Positions 3,324 to 64,000 of a DNA stretch of 64,000 nucleotides are shown piece by piece (the stretch's first letter is position 1; each line of letters begins with the position of its first letter). The notes beneath the pieces are model-generated. The model searched no databases. It worked only from the letters and a program-made list of their open reading frames with translations, and was not told the DNA's origin. The DNA lies in assembly GCF_963921235.1 (NCBI RefSeq), contig NC_086097.1:112656001-112720000 (forward strand). Direction: 5' to 3'. This stretch comes from Mobula hypostoma. Lineage: Eukaryota. Both the position numbers and the translations under genes were made by a program.

Positions 3324-4227
3324 CACCTCAGGGAAGTGTGCTTAGCCCACTGCTCTACTCTCTCTATACCCTTGACCGTGTGGCAAGGCATAGCTTAAAT
3401 ACCATCTATAAATTTGCTGACGATACAACCATTGTTGGTAGACTCTCAGATGGAGATGAGAGGGTGTACAGGAGTGAGGTATACAAGCTAGATGAGTGGT
3501 GTCACAGCAACAACCTTGCACTCAACGTCAGTAAGATTGTGGACTTCAGCAAGGGTAAAACGAGGGAACACAATCCAATCCTCATAGAGGGATCAGAAGT
3601 GGAGAGAGTGAGCAGCTTCAAGATATCTGAGGATCTAAGCTGGTCTCAACATATCGATGCAGCTATAAAGAAGGCAAGACAACAGCTATATTTAATTTGG
3701 AGTTTTAAGAGATTTGGTTTGTCAACAAAACACTGAAAATCTTCCATAAGTACCTTGATGAACATTCCAACAGGCTGTATCACTGTCTGGTATGGGGGTG
3801 CGGGGGGGCGACTGCACAGGAACAAAAGTCTCTACAGAAAGTTCTAAAATTAGTCAGCTCCATCGAGGGTACTAGCCTCCATAGTATCCAAAACATCTTC
3901 ATGGAATGGTGCCTCAGAAAGATGGCATCCATTATTAAGGATGCCCAGCACCCAGGATATGACATCTTCTCATTGTTACCATCACGAAGGGGACGCATAT
4001 GCTTGAAGGCACGCACTCAGCGATTCAGGAACAGCTTCTTCCCCTCTGCCATCCGATTCCTAAATGGACATTGAACCCATGAATTCTACCTCACTTTTTT
4101 ACAAACATTATCTCTGTTTTGCACTATTTTCAATCTAACTATTTAATATACATATATACTTACCATAATTCATTTACTTATTTATTTTTTCTTTCTATAT
4201 TATCATGAATTGCATTGAACTGCTGCT

Positions 4228-4860
4228 CACATCAAAGTTGCTGGTGAATGCAGCAGGCCAGGTAGCATCTCCAGGAAGAGGTACAGTCGACGTTTCAGGT
4301 CGAGACCCTTCATCAGGACTAACTGAAAGAAGAGCTAGTAAGAGATTTGAAGGTGGGAGGGGGAGAGGGAGATCCAAAATGATAGGAGAAGACAAGAGGG
4401 GGAGGGATGGAGCCAAGAGCTGGACAGTTGATTGGCCAAAGGGATAAGAGAGGATCATGGTACAGGAGGCCTAGGGAGAAAGAAAAGGGGGAGGGGAGAA
4501 AAAAGCCCAGAGGATGGGCAAGGGGTATAGTGAGAGGGACAGAGGGAGAAAAAGAATGTGTGTATGTAAATAAATAATGGATGGGGTACGAGGAGGAGGT
4601 GGGGCATTAGCAGAAGTTTGAGAAGTTAATGTTCATGCCATCAGGTTGGAGGCTACCCAGATGGAATATAAGGTGTTGTTTCTCCAACCTGAGTGTGGCT
4701 TCATCTTTATAATAGAGGAGGCTGTGGATAGACATACCAGAATGGGAATGGGATGTGGAATTAAAATGTGTGGCCACTGGGAGATCCTGCTTTCTCTGGC
4801 AGACAGAGCATAGGTGTTCAGCGAAACGATCTCCCAGTCTGCGTGGGGCTACACATCAGT
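4228..4860 (-). mobile_element. 5'-truncated PLE (GIY-YIG C-terminus plus pLTR)
   Basis: Reverse complement of about 55195-55812. Flanked by ctgctgct at 4220-4227/4861-4868. Confidence 0.9.
4285..4320 (-). ncRNA. Minimal type-I hammerhead ribozyme, intact core
   Basis: Minus strand reads agtc-CTGATGA-agg(gtctcga)cct-GAAAC-GTC^-gact. Stems I and II pair, and a palindromic ACGT replaces stem III. Confidence 0.85.
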
Positions 4861-5197: not shown

Positions 5198-5642
5198 TAC
5201 TTAGTGGCTACTTTATTAGGCTCAGTTCAGACCAAGCATCAGAATGGGTAAAATGTGCTCTTAGTGACTTTCACTATTGTTGGTGCCAGATGGGGTGGTT
5301 TTTCTTAGAAACTGATATCCTTGGACTTCCACCTGCAACAGTCTCTGGAGTTTTCAGAGAATGGTACGAAAAAACATCCAGTGAGCAACAGCTCTGTGGG
5401 AAAAAATGATTTGTTAATGAGATCGGTCAGAGGAGAATGGCCAGATGGGTTCAAGCCGACAGGAAGGCAACAGTAACTCACATAACCATGCGTTACAACA
5501 GCGGTATGCAGAAGAGCATCTCTGAATACACAACACATTGAACCTTGAAGTGAATGGGCTACAGTAGCCAAAGACCACAAACATACACTCAGTGACCACT
5601 TTATTGGGTAATGGAGGTATCTAATAAAGTGGCTGCTAAGTG
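5198..5642 (+). mobile_element. Non-autonomous Tc1-like element
   Basis: TIR-like ends related to cactcagtggccactttattagg. Contains a decayed paired/HTH N-terminal transposase sequence. Inserted in the tail of element A. Confidence 0.85.
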
Positions 5643-6029
5643 TTTATGTACTTTAATAATAAATACACTTTGAAATATGAATTAACTTTGAAAGTGTCAA
5701 AATTGCACTTGGAAATTACTCAGAATAGGTGTTTCCATTTTGATCTTGTATGCACACTTATGTGTAAAAATTGGCCAGAAGCTGCAAGTGGTGCAGGTGA
5801 GATTGAGAACCCTAAAGGAGTAGGCAAAGAAGAGCAAACATTTGAAGACCTTATCCCCACAGATTCCAAAGGGACACAGCGATTTATTTTAACTCTTCCA
5901 AGAGCTACTTATCCACAGCAGTCAACCTGGATAGACAACATTTGTTGTTGGCAATGATCTGATTGTAGAATCTGAAGCAACAGGTGTGGCATGTCTCCTG
6001 TAGTCTTTCAATTTCTATGAGCTATCATT

Positions 6030-18579: not shown

Positions 18580-18734
18580 ATATGTTACGGCGGTGGTGTG
18601 CAGAAGGGCATTTCTGAATGTGCAATACGTCAGGCCCTGAAGTGGATGGGCTACAGCAGTGGAAGACCACGAATATACACTCAGTGGTCACTTTATTAGA
18701 TACAGGAGGTACCTAGTAAAGTAGCCACTAAGTG
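18580..18734 (+). mobile_element. Tc1-like element 3' fragment
   Basis: Homologous to 5490-5642, including the 57-bp terminal hairpin. Confidence 0.85.
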
Positions 18735-18779
18735 CACGTAGATGACTCTTAACTACCTTATGAAGTCTCCTTCCAGTTA

Positions 18780-44914: not shown

Positions 44915-47375
44915 GCTTTGTTACTGGAAGGCCAGGGACACCTCATATTCTGTCTGGGTGGTCTCCAACCTGACAGCACGATCGTCGATTTCTCAACCTT
45001 TTGATAATATCTATTCCCCTCCCCCTCCTCTCTTTATCCATTCCCCATTCTGCTCCCCTCTTACCCCTTCTGTTCTCCTCACCTGCCTATCACCTTCCTC
45101 TGGTGCCCCTCCTCCTTCTCTTTACCATAGAAACCATAGAACCATAGAAACTACAGCACAGAAACAGGCCTTTTGGCCCTTCTTGGCTGTGCCGAACCAT
45201 TTTCTGCCTAGTCCCACTGACCTGCACACGGACCATATCCCTCCATACACCTCCCATCCATGTATCTGTCCAATTTATTCTTAAATGTTAAAAAAGAACC
45301 TGCATTTACCACTTCATCTGGCAGTTCATTTCATACTCCCACCACTCTCTGTGTGAAGAAGCCCCCCCTTAATGTTCCCTTTAAACTTTTCCCCCTCACC
45401 CTTAACCCATGTCCTCTGGTTTTTTTCTCCCCTTGTCTCAGTGGAAAAAGCCTGCTTGCATTCACTCTATCTATACCCATCATAATTTTATATACCTCTA
45501 TCAAATCTCCCCTCATTCTTCTACGCTCCAGGGAATAAAGTCCTAACCTATTCAACCTTTCTCTGTAACTGAGTTTCTCAAGTCCCGGCAACATCCTTGT
45601 AAACCTTCTCTGCACTCTTTCAACCTTATTTATATCCTTCCTGTAATTTGGTGACCAAAACTGAACACAATACTCCAGATTCGGCCTCACCAATGCCTTA
45701 TACAATCTTATCATAACATTCCAGCTCTTATACTCAATACTTTGATTAATAAAGGTCAATGTACCAAAAGCTCTCTTTACAACCCCATCTACCTGTGACA
45801 CCACTTTTAGGGAATTTTGTACCTGTATTTCCAGATCCCTCTGTTCCACTGCACTCCTCAGTGCCTTACCATTAACCCTGTATGTTCTACCTTGGTTTAT
45901 CCTTCCAACGTGCAATACCTCACACTTGTCTGTATTAAACTCCATCTGCCATTTTTCAGCCCATTTTTCCAGCTGGTCCAAGTCCCTCTGCAGGCTCTGA
46001 AAACCTTCCTCACTGTCTACTACACCTCCAATCTTTGTATCATCAGCAAATTTGCTGATCCAATTTACCACATTATCATCCAGATCATTGATATAGATGA
46101 CAAATAACAATGGATCCAGCACTGATCCCTGTGGCACACCACTAGTTATAGGCCTCCACTCGGAGAAGCAATTCTCTACTACCACTCTTTGGCTTCTTCC
46201 ATTGAGCCAATGTCTAATCCAATTTACCACCTCTCCATGTATACCTAGTGACTGAATTTTCCTAACTAACCTCCCATGCGGGACCTTGTCAAAGGCCTTA
46301 CTGAAGTCCATGTAGACAATATCCACTGCCTTCCCTTCATCCACTTTCCTGGTAACCTCCTCGAAAAACTCCAATAGATTGGTCAAACATGACCTACCAC
46401 ACACAAAGCCATGTTGACTCTCCCTAATAAGTCCCTGTCCATCCAAATGCTTGTAGATTCTGTCTCTTAGTACTCCCTCCAATAACTTACCTACTACCGA
46501 TGTTAAACTTACCGGCCTATAATTTCCCAGATTACTTTTCGATCCTTTTTTAAACAACGGAACAACATGAGCCACTCTCCAATCCTCTGGCACTTCACCT
46601 GTTGACAGCGACAGAAATATTTTAAATATTTCTGCCAGGGCCCCTGCAATTTCAACACTAGTCGCTTTCAAGGTCCAAGGGAACACCCTGTCAGGTCCCA
46701 GGGATTTATCCACTTTAATTTTCCTCAAGACAGCAAGGACCTCCTCCTTTCCAATCTGTACAGTTTCCATGATCTCACTACTTGTTTCCCTTAATTCCAT
46801 AGACTTCATGCCAGTTTCCTTAGTAAATACAGACGCAAAAAAACCGTTCACCAGCAACTTTGATGTATGTTGCTTGAATTTCCAGCATCTGCAGAATTCC
46901 TGTCGTTTGTATTTAAGATCTCCCCCATTTCCTTTGGTTCCGCACATAGCCGACCACTCTGATCTTCAAGAGGACCAATTTTATCCCTTACAATCCTTTT
47001 GCTCTTAATATACCTGTAAAAGCTCTTTGGACTTTCTCCCACAGTCCACTCTCCTCTCCTATCAGATTCCTTTTCTTCAGCCCTTTACCTTTCCACATAT
47101 CACTTCCCAGCTTCTCACTTCATTATCATTCCCCACCCACCTAGCTCCCCTCTCACCTGGCTTCACCTATCACTCCGTAGCTTGTATTCCTTCCTCTCTC
47201 CCTATGCTCTCGTCCTGCTTTCTTTCCCTTTCATTTCCAGTCCTGAATAAGGACCTTGGTCTGAAACCTCGACTCTTTATTCTTTTCCACAGATGCTGCC
47301 TGACCTGCTGAGTTCCTCCAGCATTTTGTTTGTGTTAATCTGGATTTCCAGCATCAGAAGAATCTCTTCTGTTTA
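44915..47375 (+). mobile_element. PLE pLTR split by a CR1 insertion (44915-45125 and 47028-47375)
   Basis: The two halves are collinear with other pLTRs. Variant hammerhead near 47239-47274 (core CTGAATA). Confidence 0.75.
45128..47025 (-). mobile_element. 5'-truncated young CR1 with near-intact RT
   Basis: Open frame 45331-46845: NYRPVSLTS, QHGF, YMDFSKAFDKV, GVPQGSVL, KFADD. Premature stop near the C-terminus. (tttctatg)-type tail. Confidence 0.97.
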
Positions 47376-50690: not shown

Positions 50691-52223
50691 TAGAAATGTT
50701 AGTAATGTCCATTCAGAGAAGACTGCTGAGGTGATATTATATAATATTATCATCGCCACAGAAGTTGCTCCTTCATGATGAAAATCTAAGTTAAAACCAG
50801 AAGCACATAAGGGCTTTAAATTCAAAGAATCAGCATTGGTCTACACAGCAAAAAAGCTGCAACACAACCTAGGTACACGCTATCATACTGCTGATTCAGT
50901 GCTGTTTATTGGCAGCTTGAGAGTTCAATGCCAGTGGGTTTTCAATCAGGTTGACAATACAACACAAAGCTGTGTAAACTATTAATTGGATCATTAATTA
51001 TTGTTGTTTTCACTAAAGTTTTGCTGAGAAGATTACAACAGCTTTTTTTTTGCTTTTTAAGTGCAGTGGCATTACTGCTCATTGTACATTTGTATAATAG
51101 CTCTAACTGGTCTTAGCAATTCATCATACAGCATTGTACAAAGACATAGTGGGCTAAATTGAATAGGGTTGGAAACAGTGGCTGGATATATGGTCAATTA
51201 ACCCATCTGATGCAGTGGAGGAAATAAAAATATGCGTGTTAGTCTCACAAGATGGGTTCAGTAACCAGCAAGTATTAGCCCCACTCTCTGCCTGTGCACA
51301 TCCACACACCCCGACTTCATGCATAAGTTAATTGAATTAGCTTATTAAGTCTTTGTTGGCACCTCTTAAAAGGGAGGAGGTTTGTGGTTGAAGTGGTAGT
51401 ATAAGTTATTCTATGTGTTTAAGAGCTTGCTGGAACCCCAGCGAATCACAAGTACGATTTCCTGATGTAGATTGATTTTACAAGCCTTAGTCAACAAGGA
51501 AAAAGGCTTTCCTCTCACAATGGACTAGGAAGCCATCTCAAGATTCAAGATTGTTCATTGTTATTTTTCAGTACGCAAGTGTAAAGGAAGGCAAAATATT
51601 TGTTACGTACTCCAGATCTAATGCAGCATAAAAAAATGCACAATAAGCTTAAAAAACACAAACAGCACATATAAATACATAAGATTAGCTTATATGTATA
51701 GACTGATTGTACGTACAAGTACATAAGTGATGCTAGGTATTGGACCACCTCTACATAAGGTGACCCTGACAGGAAATGATAAAGTACTGGTGGGAGGGTG
51801 GGGTGGTGTGGCGGGTTAATAGGAGGAGGAACACATAGTCAAGTCACAATATTAGAGATAAATTTCACAGGTTAAGCCTGTGACTTTGCATGTGATGTCA
51901 AGTTCAGTATCTATATCATCAAGTATTATCTCACAACAAACGTGCATCCAGATCAAACTCTATGGTGTGTAGTACATTCCCATCACTGACTACAAACTCT
52001 AACAATCATAGCCTAATATTGACAACCAAATGTACACCGTACCCTCAGATATTTGGCACTGCTCTAATCTTGTTAACTATACCTAATACAATTAAAATTC
52101 TGACAGCTCTTTAACCATTGTATGCATTTCTCATAGCCACATAACTTGTTACTTGTTACATACACCTGTTAGGGTGCATTCTCCAGATAACTTATAAGGT
52201 AACCGTAGCCTTCAGCCAGGAGC

Positions 52224-52284
52224 AGATGTCATCAGGTGGTTCCCAACCTTCACAGAGTGTTTCGACCCTTAACCACGACACTCT
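52224..52284 (-). ncRNA. Candidate rearranged hammerhead-like motif in the HERO 3' UTR (family A)
   Basis: agagtGTC^gtggtt-aagggtc-GAAAcactct-gtgaaggttggg-aaccac-CTGATGA-catct. Confidence 0.6.
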
Positions 52285-52371
52285 CCAGTTGGTGGGCCGG
52301 CAGTGGTCCATCTGCTCCTGGCTTCTAGCTCCCCTTCTCTCGCCTACTCCAAATCCAATAAGAGGCTCGTT

Positions 52372-52471
52372 CAACCAACATACATCAAAGTTGCTGGTGA
52401 ACGCAGCAGGCCAAGCAGCATCTATAGGAAGAGGCGCAGTCGACGTTTCAGGCCAAGACCCTCCTCTTTCT
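52372..52471 (-). mobile_element. ~100-bp PLE pLTR tip inserted in the HERO ORF end
   Basis: Near-identical to 882-968. Splits EEAE|RASYWIW. Confidence 0.85.
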
Positions 52472-53526
52472 CTGCCTCTTCCCCCATCCTAAGAGCTGCT
52501 TGTTTTTGCTCCTTTCGTCCAGGCCCAGATCTGACAACAACCGCCATGCTGATTTGGCTGAGAAACCTCTGCAGCCGACCTCCACAGGGAACAACCATGC
52601 CTGCCATCCCTTGTCTTTACACTCCTGCACTAAGGGCAGGTACTTCAAGGCCTTTCTCTCGTGGGCCTCTTCCCATTCCTCCTCCCACGGCAGAGTCAGC
52701 TCAACCAGAATTATTTTCCTGTCTTCAGTTGACCACGGCACAATGTCCGGGCGTAGGGTTGTGTGCACCACATCTGGGAACTGCAGCCCCCTTCCCACAT
52801 TGACCCTCATCTCCCAGGACCTGGCCGTTAGCCGCAGATTGGGCTTTGGTTACGAAAGGCCTAGCTCCCTCTTTGATGAAAGTGATGACCTTCCTCAAAT
52901 CTGTGCCAGCCGTCCTCTTCTTGCATCTCTCCCGCTCTAGTGTGTCAGCAAGAGCCAGAAGCACCTTATCATGGTGCCACCTATACCGTCCTTAAGTTAG
53001 AGCTGTTTTACACCCAGACGGTATATGAGCCAGTGTCTCCTTTTGACCACAGAGCTTACAGATCGGGTCCTCTCTCATCCCCCATGTGTACAGATGTAAT
53101 GGCGAAGGAAGGGTGTCATGCACGGTTTGCACAAGAAAGGAAATATGGAAGGGCTCCAGTCTCCATAACTCTGCCCATGAGGTCTTGCGCTTGGGCAGAT
53201 CCCATTTTGTCCAGGCACTCTGGGACCCTTGTTCCACTGCCTTTGACATCCGCTTCTCTTCCTCACGGATCCGTAATTCTGCCTGTACCATGTCTCGCCT
53301 GTTCCTTATGCTTGTGCTTCCTTACTGCTGGAAGTGAACTGAGCTGAGGCCTTGCCACCCTATGCAGGGGTTGCCGATGATATCTCGCATCTTCAGAGAA
53401 CACACTGCCTGCTCCACAGCTGCGTTGGCTGCCCACTTGCACCCAGATCTGGTTGTAACACCTGCAACACACATCAAAGTTGCTGGTGAACGCAGCAGGC
53501 CAAGCAGCATCTCTAGGAAGAGGTAC

Positions 53527-53562
53527 AGTCAACATTTCAGGCCGAGACCCTTCGTCAGGACT
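53527..53562 (-). ncRNA. Minimal hammerhead motif (CpG-decayed)
   Basis: agtc-CTGACGA-agg(gtctcgg)cct-GAAA-tgtt-gact. Confidence 0.7.
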
Positions 53563-55716
53563 AACTGAAGAAAGAGCTAGTAAGAGTCTTAGAAGGGGGA
53601 GGGGGAGGGGGAGATCCAAAATGATAGGAGAAGACAGGAGGGGGAGGGATGGAGCCAAGAACTGGACAGGTGATAGGCAAAAGGGATATGAGAGGATCAT
53701 GGGACAGGAGGCCCAGGGAGAAGGAAAAGGGGGAGGGGGGAAACCCAGAGGATGGGCAAGGGGTATAGTCAGAGGGCCAGAGGGAGAAATAGGAGAGTGA
53801 GAGAAGGAATGTGTGTATATAAATAACGGATGGGGGCCAGGGAACTTAAAATCATCGAAAAGTTTAAGAGCATGAGAAGCGTCACGAACATAGGTAGGAA
53901 GGGATTGAACAAGGGGGGATAAAACCCTGTCGAGGTATGCAGAAACAAGTTCGGTGGGGCAGGAGCAAGCTGAGGCAATAGGTCTGCCAGGACAGGCAGG
54001 TTTGTGGATCTTGGGTAGGAGGTAGAAACGGGCCCTGGGGTTCCCTGGCCCCCACCACTTTATTTTCACCATGGATGTCCAGACCCTATATACTTACATC
54101 CCCCATCAGGAAGGTCTCAAAGCTCTCCACTTCTTTTTGGATTCCAGACCTAATCGGTTCCCCTCTACACCACTCTGCTCCGTCTAGCGGAATTGGTCCT
54201 TACTCTTAATAATTTCTCCTTTGACTCCTCCTACTTCCTCCAAACTAAAGGTGTAGCTATGGGCACCCGCATGGGTCCGAGCTATGCCTGCCTTTTTGTT
54301 GGCTTTGTGGAACAATCTATGTTCCGTACCCATTCTGGTATCTGTCCCCCACTTTTCCTTCGCTACATCGACGACTGCATTGGCGCTGCTTCCTGCACGC
54401 ATGCTGAGCTCGTTGACTTTATCAACTTTGCCTCCAACTTTCACCCTGCCCTCAAGTTTACCTGGTCCATTTCCGACACCTCCCTCACCTTTCTAGATCT
54501 TTCTGTCTCTATCTCTGGAGACAGCTTATCTACTGATGTCTACTATAAGCCTACTGACTCTCACGGCTATCTGGACTATTCCTCTTCTCACCCTGTCTCT
54601 TGCAAAAATACCATCCCCTTCTCGCAATTCCTCCGTCTCCGCCGCATCTGCTCTCAGGATGAGGCTTTTCATTCCAGGACGAGGGAGATGTCCTCCTTTT
54701 TTAAAGAAAGGGGCTTCCCTTCCTCACTATCAACTCTGCTCTCAAACGCATCTCCCCCATTTCACGCACATCTGTCCTCACTCCATCCTCCCGCCACCCC
54801 ACTAGGAATTGGGTTCCATTGGTCCTCACCTACCACCCCACCAGCCTCCAGATCCAACATATTATTCTCCGTAACTTCCGCCACCTCCAACGGGATCCCA
54901 CCACCAAGCACACCTTTCCCTCACCCCCCCACCCCCCGCTTTCCACAAGGATCACTCCCTACGCGACTTCCTTGTCCATTCGTCCCCCCCATCTCTCCCC
55001 ACTGATCTCCCTCCTGGCACTTATCCTTGTAAGCGGAACAAGTGCTACACATGCCCTTACACTTCCTCCCTTACCACCATTCAGGGCCCAAGACAGTCCT
55101 TCCAGGTGAGGCGACACTTCACCTGTGAGTCGACTGGGGTGATATACTGCGTCCGGTGCTCCCGATGTGGCCTTCTATATACTGGCGAGACCCGACGCAG
55201 ACTGGGAGATCGTTTTGTTGAACACCTCCGCTCTGTCCACCAGAGAAAGCAGGATCTCCCGGTGGCCACACATTTTAATTCCACATCCCATCCCATTCTG
55301 ACATGTCCATCCACGGCCTCCTCTACTGTAAAGATGAAGCCACACTCAGGTTGGAGGTACAACACTTTATATTCCGTCTGGGTAGCCTCCAACCTGATGG
55401 CATGAACATTGACTTCTCTAACTTCCGCTTATGCCCTACCTCCCCCTCGTACCCCATCCATTATTTATATACACATATTCTTTCTCTCACTCTCCTTTTT
55501 CTCCCTCTGACTATACCCCTTGCCCATTCTCTGGGTTCCCCCCCTCCCCCTTTTCCTTCTCCCTGGGCCTCCTGTCCCATGATCCTCTCATATCCCTTTT
55601 GCCAATCACCTGTCCAGCTCTTGGCTCCATCCCTCCCCCTCCTGTCTTCTCCTATCATTTTGGATCTCCCCCTCCCCCTCCCACTTTTAAATCTCTTACT
55701 AGCCTTTTCTTCAGTT

Positions 55717-55752
55717 AGTCCTGATGAAGGGTCCCGGCCTGAAACGTCGACT
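55717..55752 (+). ncRNA. Minimal type-I hammerhead ribozyme, intact core
   Basis: agtc-CTGATGA-agg(gtcccgg)cct-GAAAC-GTC^-gact. Predicted cut after 55748. Confidence 0.87.
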
Positions 55753-55993
55753 GTACCTCTTCCTAGAGATGCTGCCTGGCCTGCTGCATTCACCAGCAAA
55801 CCTTGATGTGTGTTGCTTGAATTTCCAGCATTTGCAGAATTCCTCGTGTTTGGTTGTAACACCTGCTTGCTTTACCAAGACATCATTAGAATCTCTCAAG
55901 CTTAATAAGGCTCTGCATTTTGCCACCTTGAATTCCTCCACAACAGATGACAGCGGAAACAGCAGTTGCCCAAATTGAATATAGAGATTACCT

Positions 55994-57709: not shown

Positions 57710-58745
57710 GAGGTGAGATCAAAGGGACTGTCTTTGACCTTAAGGCAAAATTTGACTGCGTGTGGTATTAGGGTATCCTTATAAAATTGAGAAAATACTT
57801 CCAATAATTAGAGTCTTTCCTCCAAAGGCAAATGGTTATGGTTTAGTCACTCTGGTCCTTGGGTGAGTTCCTCAGAGCAGTGTCCTAGACCCTACTATCT
57901 TCAGCCTCTTCATTGAAGACTTTCTTTTCATCACAAGGTCAGAAGTAGAGATGATTATTGATGACAGCACATTCAATTCTATTAACAGCTCCTCAGCAAA
58001 TAAACAATTCCATTTACAAAATACAAAGTACAAAGTGCATAAATTATCAAAGTATGCATGCTTTATTAACCTTGAGATTTGTCTCCTTATAGGTAGCCAC
58101 AAAACAAAGACATGAATCTCAAAATATGCATTTCTGCATTAATCAAGAGTTTCATAATATTTGGGCACAGGCTGATAATTGGCAGGTGACATTCTCCCCA
58201 AAAATGTCTCAGGCAATTTTTATCTACGAGATGAGTGAGGTTAATTGTTCACCTTGTCATTCAATTGGATTACCATGGTCAAATTTACTGCTATCAACAT
58301 CCTGGGCACTCATCATTAGCCTGAAAAACTGGACCACCTAAAAAGTTATGTCATTACCAGGGTATCCTGTAATGACTAATCAACCTCTTTTCAACCCAAA
58401 AGCTTTATTTTATCAATAAGACACACCAGAAATATTCTCCACTTTTGTCTAAGTAAGTGAATTTCAAACAACATTCAAGAAGGTCGATCATATTGAATAG
58501 AAAGCTGACCACTTGATTAAAACCCTGTCCATCAATCTAAATGCCCCCATCACGAGTTGAACTCACCTAGGTTATTCTGAGAGCATCTCTAAACCTGTCA
58601 CTTCTACAGTGCACGGAAATACCCTGACCTACACATTCATTCTCATGTCATACTGATCTTCATTTGAAAATATACCTCTGTTCCCATTATTACTTGGTCA
58701 AAATCCTCGAACTCCAACCCAAACAACACTGTAGGAGTCCTTCCA
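57710..58745 (+). mobile_element. Ancient CR1/L2-group LINE RT relic
   Basis: Decayed motifs: DLKAKFDCVW (about 57735), gttcctcagagcagtgtccta (VPQ.SVL), attgatgac (.DD), WAQADNWQVTF. Confidence 0.6.
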
Positions 58746-61589: not shown

Positions 61590-61935
61590 CCATTTACATC
61601 TACGACCAGTCTATTGAAGAAGATGGGGGTGAGGGATCACTCCCTCCAACAAGCAATCAAGTCCTTGTCAAACGCAGCAGAAGAAAGCAGCAATTGGATT
61701 TGGGTTAAAAGGAAAGACAACAACTGGGCTGCAAGATGAAGACAGGAGGGTATGGAACTGAGGGGGTTGTACCTGGGAGGCCAGGTAGCACCGTTGAGCC
61801 CTCTGGAGATGTCGTGGGCTTATCAATGAAACGTCAAAGAAGGAAGGTGCCCACCTGATGACCCCAATGACGTACCTACCCTCCCTCCTTGTCACCACTC
61901 CAAGCCCACTGCCAACATTGAGAGTGCCAACTTAC
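61590..61935 (+). mobile_element. 3' tip of a second HERO-type family
   Basis: AIKSLSNAAEESSNWIWVKRKDNNWAAR* (stop near 61739) parallels GEEAERASYWIWSRR of the 52-kb element. Shares the 3' UTR motif. Confidence 0.75.
61808..61865 (+). ncRNA. Candidate rearranged hammerhead-like motif in the HERO 3' UTR (family B)
   Basis: gatGTC^gtgggc-ttatcaat-GAAAcgtc-aaagaaggaaggt-gcccac-CTGATGA-cccc. Confidence 0.55.
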
Positions 61936-62450
61936 CACAGGGATTGAAACATCAAGTTCTAGTAGCTCTACTACCAATATTACTACCTTAACATTTATTT
62001 ATTTGCAGGTATTTACAGGAAAAGGGAAACATAATAGAATTTTGCAAGATTAAAACTGTACGTGAACAAAGAATGACAAACAGCCAATGTGCAAAAGAAG
62101 ACAAACTGTGGAAATCAAAATAACATTGAGAACAAGAGATGGATTCGAAGAAGGAAGTCTGAGAGTCGGAGCGGGAGTGCGGAGGAAGACATCTTTGAAT
62201 ATTTCAGTTTTTTTTCCATCGGCGTTCAGAGAGGCGGGACTGCGCAGGCGTGTGACATCGGGCAGTGAAGCGTGGAAGATTTAAAAGGAACAGAGCCTCA
62301 TACAGTGGGCAGCGTAGTTTGCGGGCAGCGGAGTGAGCCGGGAGCAGAGTGAAGGCTTAAGGGCTTCGGCTCAACGGGCTTAGGCGGAAACGGGTAAGGC
62401 GAGGAAGGTTTGGTATTCATTTTTTGTTGTTATTTGAGGAGAGGGGCAGT

Positions 62451-63385
62451 ATGAGTGTGAGGGCAGTTTGTTCTCGGTGCCGGATGTGGGAGGCCCTGGA
62501 GTCTCCAAGCCTCCTGGACGTCCACATCTGCGCCAGGTGCGCCGAGATGCAGCTCCTAAGGGACTGCGTTAGGGAACTGGAGCTGCAGCTCGATGACCTT
62601 CGTCTGGTCAGGGAGAGTGAGGAGTTGATAGAGAGGAGTTACAGGCAGGTGGTCACACCGGGGCCACGGAAGGCAGACCAGTGGGTCACGGTTAGGAGGG
62701 GGAAGGGGAAGAGTCAGGTAATAGAGAGTACCCCGGTGGCTGTGCCCCTTGACAACAGGTACTCCTGTTTGAGTACTGTTGGGGGGGGGGACAGCTTACC
62801 CGGGGGAAGTGACAGTGGCCGCGCCTCCGGCACAGAGTCCGGCCCTGTAGCTCAGAAGGGTAGGGAAAGGAAGAGGAGGGCAGTTGTAATAGGGGACTCA
62901 ATAGTAAGGGGGTCAGATATGCGATTCTGTGGACGCAGTCCAGAGACCCGGATGGTAGTTTGCTTCCCTGGTGCCAGGGTCCGGGATATTTCTGATCGTG
63001 TCCAAGATATCCTGAAGTGGGAGGGTGAGGAGCCAGAGGTCGTGGTACATATAGGTACCAATGACATAGGTGGGAAAAGGGAAGAGGTCCTGAAAGGAGA
63101 ATATAGGGAGCTAGGAAGGGAGTTGAGAAAAAGGACCGCAAAGTAGTAATCTCGGGATTACTGCCTGTGCCATGCGACAGTGAGAGTAGGAATGCAATGA
63201 GGTGGAGGATAAATGCGTGGCTGAGGGATTGGAGCAGGGGGCAGGGATTCAAGTTTTTGGATCATTGGGACCTCTTTTGGCGCAGGCGTGACCTGTACAA
63301 AAAGGATGGGTTACACTTGAACCCTAGGGGGACCAATATCCTGGCAGGGAGATTAGCGAGGGCTACTGAGATGACTTTAAACTAG
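62451..63385 (+). pseudogene. CR1 ORF1 (zinc finger, coiled coil, SGNH esterase) with one frameshift near 63143
   Basis: CSRC..HICARC, VRELELQLDDL, VIGDSIV, FPGARV, HIGTND, DGLHLN. Confidence 0.92.
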
Positions 63386-63609
63386 AATGATTGGGGGGTG
63401 GGAATCAAATTAAAGAGGCTAGGCGAGAGGAGGTTAATTCACAACAGGGAGATGGGAACCAGTGCAGAGAGACAGAGGGGTGTAAAGTGAGGGTAAAAGC
63501 AAAAAGTAGTCAGGTGAAAAGTAGAAGTGGCAGGCCGACAAATCCAGGGCAAGCATCAAAAAGGACGACTTTTCAACATAATTGTATAAGGGCTAAGAGA
63601 GTTGTAAAA

Positions 63610-64000
63610 GAGCGCCTGAAGGCTTTGTGTGTCAATGCCAGGAGCATTCGTAACAAGGTGGATGAATTAAAAGTGCAGATTGTTATTAATGAATATGATA
63701 TAGTTGGGATCACAGAGACGGCTCCAGGGTGACCCAGGATAGGAGCTCAACATTCAGGGATATTCAATATTCGGGGGGGATAGACATGAAAGAAAAGGAG
63801 GTGGGGTGGCGTTGCTGGTTAGCGAGGAGATTAACGCAATAGAAAGGAAGGACATAAGCCGGGAAGATGTGGAATCGATATGGGTAGAGCTGCATAACAC
63901 TAAGGGGCAGAAAACGCTGGTGGGAGTTGTGTACAGGCCACCTAACAGTAGTAGTGAGGTCGGAGATGGTATTAAACAGGAAATTAGAAATGTGTTCAAT
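63610..64000 (+). pseudogene. CR1 ORF2 APE endonuclease N-terminus (disrupted near 63720)
   Basis: LKALCVNARSIRNKVDEL..YDIVGITET, then DR..RKGGGVALLV..ESIWVEL..VGVVYRPP. Confidence 0.92.

Follow-up and report, generated by a model that had tools for sequence, protein, structure and literature searches.

The closest described relatives of the RNA motif reported here are the type-SGC hammerheads (HRIMA-1 and variants), whose order is cleavage site, GAAA, CUGANGA, and the type-CSG hammerheads. In the parts of Eckert et al. 2023 (PMC10085705) that concern these forms, block C is assumed to be uninterruptible, and the SGC ribozymes need stem I to interact with stem II. Among mobile elements, the pLTRs of Penelope-like elements hold minimal hammerheads, and the relevant passages of Cervera and De la Pena 2014 (PMC4209133) propose a cycle of cutting, ligation and circle formation for a ribozyme placed in this way. 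Most retrotransposon ribozymes treated in the sections of the review PMC6765202 on this subject free the element from a read-through transcript, as the R2 5′ ribozyme does.

We find a hammerhead-like motif with a split core in two copies of HERO LINEs within a 64,000-nt stretch of the Mobula hypostoma genome (NC_086097.1, positions 112,656,001 to 112,720,000; hereafter the window), at 61808-61865 on the forward strand, in the 3′ non-coding region of a truncated element, and near 52 kb on the reverse strand (Table 1); in both copies it lies downstream of the stop codon of the RT-RLE ORF. The block order at 61808-61865 is that of type-SGC hammerheads. Set against the SGC and CSG examples in the same parts of PMC10085705, the HERO motif has in common with them the block order, the short linker between stems I and II, the core letters and a helix between the outer ends of these stems, whereas the SGC stem II 5′ strand follows CUGANGA and HERO carries its stem II and I-II strands upstream, with P0 and P0b filling the gap. 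It is not filed as type SGC because its block C is interrupted, and on account of this interrupted order descriptor searches would have missed it. No report of a HERO-hammerhead link or of the split-core order appears in the literature that we searched, which for non-circular and type-SGC hammerheads comprised Eckert et al. 2023 and papers mentioning it; subscription papers or Repbase may describe the terminal repeat of these elements discussed below.

Table 1. Positions of HERO features in the window, and of the 5′ UTR hairpin run in other HERO loci
Feature	Position	Strand	Remarks
HERO family-1 copy, 5′-truncated	61595..61972	+	ORF end, 3′ non-coding region, short CTACT tail
Family-1 ORF C-terminus remnant, after RLE domain	61595..61739	+	stop at 61737-39
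P0 5′ strand GGGG	61762..61765	+	partner 61862-65; probably extended outward by 61741-61752 with ~61877-61892
P0b hairpin	61766..61792	+	loop GAGG in window copy; candidate kissing loop
Stem II 5′ strand GUUGA	61793..61797	+	G10.1 = 61793; detached from CUGAUGA
I-II helix 5′ strand	61798..61804	+	joins stems I and II at their outer ends
Stem III 3′ strand and GUC triplet	61808..61813	+	predicted cut after C61813, by hammerhead analogy
Stem I 3′ strand GUGGGC	61814..61819	+	sequence and pairing
Stem II 3′ strand, GAAA (G12-A15.1), stem III 5′ strand	61823..61835	+	sequence and pairing
I-II helix 3′ strand	61842..61848	+	G>A decay at 61845 in window copy
Stem I 5′ strand GCCCAC and core CUGAUGA	61849..61861	+	sequence and pairing
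P0 3′ strand CCCC	61862..61865	+	directly 3′ of A9
HERO family-2 copy, 5′-truncated	52151..55984	-	broken by Penelope-like insertion (~53465-55850) and short insert (52372-52471)
Family-2 motif (52-kb copy)	52215..52322	-	position 17 = 52277; core 52229-35
Family-2 motif P0	52309-22 with 52215-28	-	14 bp
Family-2 motif stem II	52294-98 with 52264-68	-	GGCCC/GGGUC
Family-2 motif I-II helix	52287-92 with 52243-48	-
Family-2 motif stem III	52278-84 with 52254-60	-	AGAGUGU/ACACUCU
Family-2 motif stem I	52271-76 with 52236-41	-	GUGGUU/AACCAC
5′ UTR hairpin run	L034 oriented 1745-1850; L257 oriented 3995-4110; L128, L130, L138, L140, L147, L169

The original prediction at this locus read GAUGU-C (61808-61813), GUGGGC (61814-19), an 8-nt linker, GAAAC-GUC (61828-35), a 13-nt linker, GCCCAC (61849-54) and CUGAUGA (61855-61), and these letters are correct, as is the covariation of stem I between the 52-kb copy (GUGGUU/AACCAC) and this one (GUGGGC/GCCCAC). 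Stem III pairs as proposed, but the G-U pair that it contains is decay of the window copy: position 61810 is C in 15, T in 13 and A in 1 of the 29 other family-1 copies, and those with C form a perfect GACGU/ACGUC stem. The linker 'gaagg', thought to be invariant, is common to both window copies but varies across the clade, and its GG is part of a helix. Where no convincing stem II had been seen, GUUGA (61793-97) pairs with UCAAU (61823-27), as do GGCCC and GGGUC in the 52-kb copy; position 61827, the last place of this stem, is C in 23/29 other family-1 copies. Rebuilding the family consensus from genomic copies, the check that had been suggested, upholds the pairings and locates the stem II partner upstream. 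The assignment to two divergent families related to HERO agrees with our comparison of the RT by eye and of the domains of relatives, the C-terminal proteins of the two families being 38% identical. Selection on the RNA structure had been argued from two related window copies, which by themselves are weak evidence for it, and is borne out by the comparison of 32 families described below. The motif also extends beyond that description, in that the I-II helix, P0 and P0b belong to it and it is present throughout the clade.

A descriptor of the block order with stems I and III matches exactly these two sites in the window, compared with a mean of 0.11 and a maximum of 1 in 100 dinucleotide shuffles. 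A six-helix descriptor, with a threshold score of at least 60, gives 66 for the family-1 copy and 74 for the 52-kb copy, both scores being reduced by decay; a further site near 57900 (-) scores 53, below threshold, and has no covariance-model match. CUGANGA alone is not enriched in the window (53 vs 45.8 expected), and an Rfam scan of the window returns no hammerhead match up to E=1, nested models being unlikely to suit such a strand order. The family-1 copy is a 378-nt 3′ fragment with 94.7% identity to the last 377 nt of a full-length copy (L257) and deviates from the family majority at 61767, 61772, 61779, 61827, 61845 and 61866; the 52-kb copy has most of its P0b hairpin deleted. First-look candidates in the 3.5-Gb genome number 1546 for family 1 and 1781 for family 2.

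Other elements share the window. The Penelope-like element at 53465-55850, which we take to be of the GIY-YIG type, is inserted in the family-2 HERO copy between duplicated target flanks and holds a minimal type I hammerhead at 55721; further minimal hammerhead motifs occur at 975(-), 4316(-), 16372 and 34653. A CR1/L2-like element, whose ORF1 weakly matches a GDSL esterase and which by eye includes the start of an endonuclease ORF, occupies positions 62361-64000, and 45331-46965 (-) is a 544-codon open frame with weak RT-domain similarity that is not HERO. Two related 67-nt inverted-repeat elements (5581-5647 and 18673-18739), with weak mir-9256 matches far under the gathering score, are probably MITEs.

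The HERO elements have a single ORF, with an RT and a C-terminal region carrying a conserved RPD..E..K-type motif that we take to be an RLE; relatives contain PF00078, the closest solved proteins are those of R2, and where a source is named for a relative it is a fish, lamprey, amphioxus or bivalve. Comparison by eye with individual rows of the PMC7650587 supplement places the family-1 RT close to the HERO-1_BF row (e.g., 13/14, 14/19 and 15/19 residues in three blocks), with a resemblance also to the HEROTn row, while the R4 row fits poorly. The 3′ flanks of 60 copies are unrelated, in agreement with the mostly absent target specificity described for the HERO clade in part of PMC4640811, and the copies end in short repeat tails without poly(A). 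In every family seen, the HERO 5′ UTR opens with a series of short hairpins whose loops are rich in purines (Table 1); the series is conserved and is possibly a promoter, translation or protein-binding signal.

The strands of the motif are arranged in the order P0(5′), hairpin P0b, II(5′), I/II strand, III(3′)-NUH, I(3′), II(3′)-GAAAC-III(5′), I/II strand, I(5′)-CUGANGA and P0(3′). In every family, the bases 3′ of CUGAUGA pair with a far-upstream strand to form P0 and the bases 5′ of GAAA pair with a second upstream strand to form stem II, with the P0b hairpin between these two upstream strands, while the strand 3′ of the upstream stem II strand pairs with the bases preceding stem I to form the I-II helix, which is the contact of stem I with stem II on which the SGC ribozymes depend. 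Stem II forms through the upstream strand in 32/32 families, and the first base of this detached strand (10.1) is G in all of them. A conventional stem II, with its strand right after CUGANGA, was considered and rejected, as it gives no pair in 30/32 families and the base after A9 is G in 2/32. Since CUGAUGA continues into P0, a predicted four-way junction takes the place of the A9-G10.1 link; with the bases after CUGAUGA held in P0 and the stem II and I-II strands upstream, the circuit of the SGC/CSG class is thus opened between A9 and G10.1. We know of no other hammerhead with a break at this step. When the gaps are left free, the best register leaves zero unpaired bases at all three junction steps in 17/32 families, with equal helix registers in 11 more, and we infer stacking of P0 on P0b and of stem II on the A9-G12 pair in a perfect four-way junction that would hold G10.1 beside A9. 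Judged by its sequence and pairings, the motif is a hammerhead core in a topology beyond the six named permutations. Nested folding misses this pseudoknotted fold (z -0.4 to -2.6), the MFE being uninformative for such a topology.

We next consider how widely the motif occurs. It is present in five HERO families of the M. hypostoma genome; a loose word pattern gives 3896 matches genome-wide vs 922 for its reversed control and yields three further HERO families with the motif, and two family-4 copies (L090 and L103) that fail the descriptor are matched by the covariance model. For metagenomes, we aligned 45 C-terminal proteins and took the best 80 of 371 loci on protein alone. The motif is found in 57/61 of those with at least 250 nt of flank (51 by the descriptor and 6 of its 10 misses by the covariance model), and the descriptor matches 7/19 loci with a shorter flank; the four loci without it (L126, L141, L152 and L180) appear truncated or deleted. 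The controls are nearly silent: 0/61 reverse strands and 0/61 ORF-side stretches of these loci reach threshold, as do 2/2640 shuffles that keep the core words and 0/80 viral loci containing both core words (80 of at least 120 matches); a search for HERO proteins in viral contigs finds none. Two HERO-like loci with the motif (L192 and L194) lie within contigs of bacterial MAGs, which is probably animal contamination or misassembly. A SINE-like family with no HERO protein nearby (L092-L095) fits the loose word pattern and carries GUC, GAAAC and CUGAUGA in the same order in its tail; we rejected it as a member, given that the stem I pairing is absent and that the descriptor and model scores are zero.

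For covariation we started from 66 motif matches and set aside L111, which is cut off, L194, which is weak, and both copies in the window; 62 remain, of which 32 are non-redundant. The 32-family alignment was fitted to the structure. Of its 2211 column pairs, the 25 that rank highest are without exception predicted pairs, and they represent all six helices. The first pair of P0 forms in 32/32 families, as the descriptor requires, and ranks 6 of 2211 by mutual information (MI); the I-II helix covaries over 5-9 bp, with MI ranks 1 and 4 of 2211. An alignment made on sequence only (31 rows) gives a similar picture, as 92% of the cells of four helices pair (98.7% for stem II and 84.9% for the I-II helix), 12/16 pairs vary on both sides, and slid controls pair at 32-47%. 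The same alignment contains 112 double changes vs 28 in shuffles, and 0/500 shuffles reach 92%, the shuffle leaving relatedness among the rows in place. These comparisons support the view that the pairings covary under selection, and we hold it to be nearly certain that this is a real, clade-wide fold, a six-helix RNA element of HERO retrotransposons.

The letters of the motif are those expected of a hammerhead. C3-U4-G5-A6-N7-G8-A9 and G12-A13-A14 are present, as is the A15.1-U16.1 pair, and stems I, II and III flank the core, stem II through its upstream strand; the descriptor requires this pair and most core letters, for which the covariance model and the raw listing agree. Exceptions among the 62 motifs are C3U (3), G8A (2) and G12A (3), the last in three near-identical contigs at a CpG, where a sister locus (L187) keeps G. 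In hammerheads, C3 and G8 form a tertiary pair; here, the 3-8 combination is CG in 59 motifs, UA in 2, with a single origin on the protein tree, UG in 1 and never CA. Two positions are left free by the descriptor: 17 is U in 22, C in 22, A in 18 and G in none of the 62 motifs and switches repeatedly on the protein tree (on which the family-3 protein is that of copy L079), and 7 takes all four bases. The pattern at 17, 7 and 10.1 fits part of PMC7151607, in which the consensus of the core and H17 are set out and the metal site is placed at the A9 phosphate and G10.1; G12 acts as the base and G8 as the acid in hammerhead catalysis according to the pertinent section of PMC6155905. On this evidence, we consider it likely that the HERO motif self-cleaves, with a predicted cut after position 17 (C61813 in the window copy). 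A peak of 5′ truncations at this site, hinted at by 2/25 family-2 copies, is not upheld genome-wide, where ≈5/33 truncations counted by eye fall within 1 nt of it vs ≈6.6 expected, 7 of 40 rows with internal deletions having been dropped beforehand; nor do 88 copies with deletions, likewise inspected by eye, show a deletion peak there.

The tip of P0b is of two main kinds. Of the 32 families, 15 have a 6-nt palindrome there and 7 have a GACG tetraloop (22/32 together), the palindromes being UGAUCA (7), UGGCCA (5), and also UGUACA, UCAUGA and AGUACU; family 1 belongs to the GACG group, with GACG in 21/30 copies. Palindromes make up 14/19 of the long P0b loops vs 1.7 expected, a pattern spotted after the fact, and 0/32 of a control linker. 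The review PMC516450, in its part on retroviral dimer linkages, describes palindromic loops and GACG tetraloops in this role, so that P0b resembles retroviral dimer-initiation loops in its tips, but in HERO the dimers are putative and 10/32 families have neither loop. By this analogy, the P0b loop may dimerise HERO RNA; cofolding energies favour duplexes for any hairpin, P0b included.

The architecture of full-length copies places the motif within a terminal repeat. Among 30 family-2 copies chosen by their 5′ UTR (the query copy counted), 25 have their own 3′ tail joined seamlessly upstream of the 5′ end, one has 11 nt of tail, and four begin no more than ≈8 nt from the junction, a hint that a linear RNA may start at this point; the tail-to-5′ junction itself is near-fixed. 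The 25 upstream extensions measure 17 nt to 1.9 kb, with 6 stopping before the predicted cut site, 2 at it (L242 at 0 and L253 at +1) and 17 passing it, and a further copy (L265) spans the predicted cut site to the tail. The same join is found in family 1 (L257 and L273) and family 3 (L263), a 5′ UTR-like array directly follows the tail in 12/43 metagenome loci, and one contig of a related organism reads across the join; the own 5′ end is not reached in L264. L259 is a circularly permuted insertion of 1.02 units that runs from unit position 1469 through the join to 1547 and is flanked by an 11-bp TSD, the following 13 kb being free of HERO sequence, and L277 contains ≈1.5 units and two joins; no copies of two full units were seen among those examined. 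The seamless joins and the permuted L259 imply that the template was continuous across the element ends. A copy listed as L035 and L277 ends, at oriented 4614-4740, with 100 nt of 5′ UTR and then ≈20 nt of tail, likely a template switch just after priming.

The two ends of one copy differ at 20-25% of marker sites (40/198; 36/146) vs 38-40% between copies, and are closer than random (permutation p=0.0004 for 36/146 vs 40%), although the marker columns may hold hypermutable sites. In L261 the ends are nearly identical over a long repeat (1/29 differing), and other copies are mosaic. A strict single-molecule circle for every insertion is not upheld, as the ends of one copy differ too often; a contribution from switches of template, from tandem masters that differ or from subsequent conversion is required.

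We propose, with slightly less than even confidence, that the split-core hammerhead cuts longer-than-unit transcripts and that the RNA is rejoined into a circular template; for the circular template taken by itself, our confidence is likewise just short of even. A HERO copy with two motifs would be transcribed and its RNA cut at both; the ends of the unit-length RNA would stay paired and then be ligated to a circle, on which the RT would prime in the tail, at a fixed site 125-160 nt beyond the cut, and copy round the circle, so that every generation would renew the terminal repeat, as has been suggested for Penelope elements. Such cutting and rejoining would account for the repeat of their own ends in full-length copies. 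In a weaker step of the scheme, a kissing contact of P0b loops would pair two RNAs, enabling the RT to switch templates, and RNA dimers of this kind would account for the mosaic ends. The complete reading, in which an active hammerhead of a seventh topology, split at A9-G10.1, contains a four-way junction and a dimerising hairpin and HERO retrotransposes from the circles that it makes, is offered tentatively, at well below even confidence. Compared with the Penelope pLTR hammerheads and retrozymes in the passages of PMC4209133, HERO is alike in having a ribozyme motif within a terminal repeat and more-than-unit copies, but those motifs are of the conventional types I or III and sit in elements that are GIY-YIG or non-autonomous, whereas HERO is a LINE of the RLE clade whose motif has a full core in rearranged order. 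The R2 5′ HDV-like ribozyme is likewise a self-cleaving RNA in an RLE non-LTR element, predicted in the case of HERO, but is of a different class and sits at the 5′ end, and R2 is site-specific.

The fold may instead be real and non-cutting, a ribozyme-derived structure for RT docking or dimerisation, with the repeat arising from tandem read-through or from an end-to-end jump of the RT between partner RNAs. The absence of any nick trace in truncations and deletions of genomic copies, the 17/25 extensions that read through the site, the frequent differences between the ends of one copy, the 4/30 copies that start at the junction and the backbone break at A9-G10.1 all fit such a structure, which we nonetheless think unlikely: the upstream stem II strand pairs in 32/32 families, and docking would have no need to exclude G17, free position 7 and hold G10.1, G12 and G8 constant among proteins that are no more than ≈40% alike. 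After end-to-end RT jumps one would also expect junctions that vary, but the one observed is near-fixed. A decidedly unlikely alternative keeps the cut and makes the template linear, the upstream motif freeing the element from a host read-through transcript and the downstream motif being inactive under bound RT. This is the role given to most retrotransposon ribozymes in the sections of PMC6765202 cited above, and the 2/25 extended copies that begin at the cut site, together with L265, would be products of it; against this, 17/25 extensions continue beyond the site, in some cases for over 1.7 kb, there is no genome-wide peak at the cut site, 5′ truncation would lose the repeat, and L259 is left unexplained.

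Were the ribozyme mainly to silence the element, by removing the 3′ end and limiting transcript life, only uncut RNAs would be copied, and all copies would have the intact site and lack nick traces, as they do; the seamless tail-to-5′ junction in three families and the kissing-type loop would then go unexplained, which makes this very improbable. Chance resemblance in two repeats, for which one could cite the unremarkable number of CUGANGA words in the window and the lack of an Rfam hammerhead, is refuted by the covariation and runs counter to the window shuffles, the clade-wide matches and the covariance model, such that we give it next to no credence.

If the cutting and circularising reading is true, the HERO motif would give both animal genomes and known mobile elements their first non-circularly permuted hammerhead. 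It would also break the rule, as stated, against interruption of any of the three hammerhead blocks. The replication of a LINE clade would then have to be rethought, as one without poly(A), with a self-renewing terminal repeat and possibly with circular and dimeric RNA, in what would be a retrozyme-like cycle in an autonomous R2-group LINE; such a cycle would bear on the R2-group elements now used for gene insertion.
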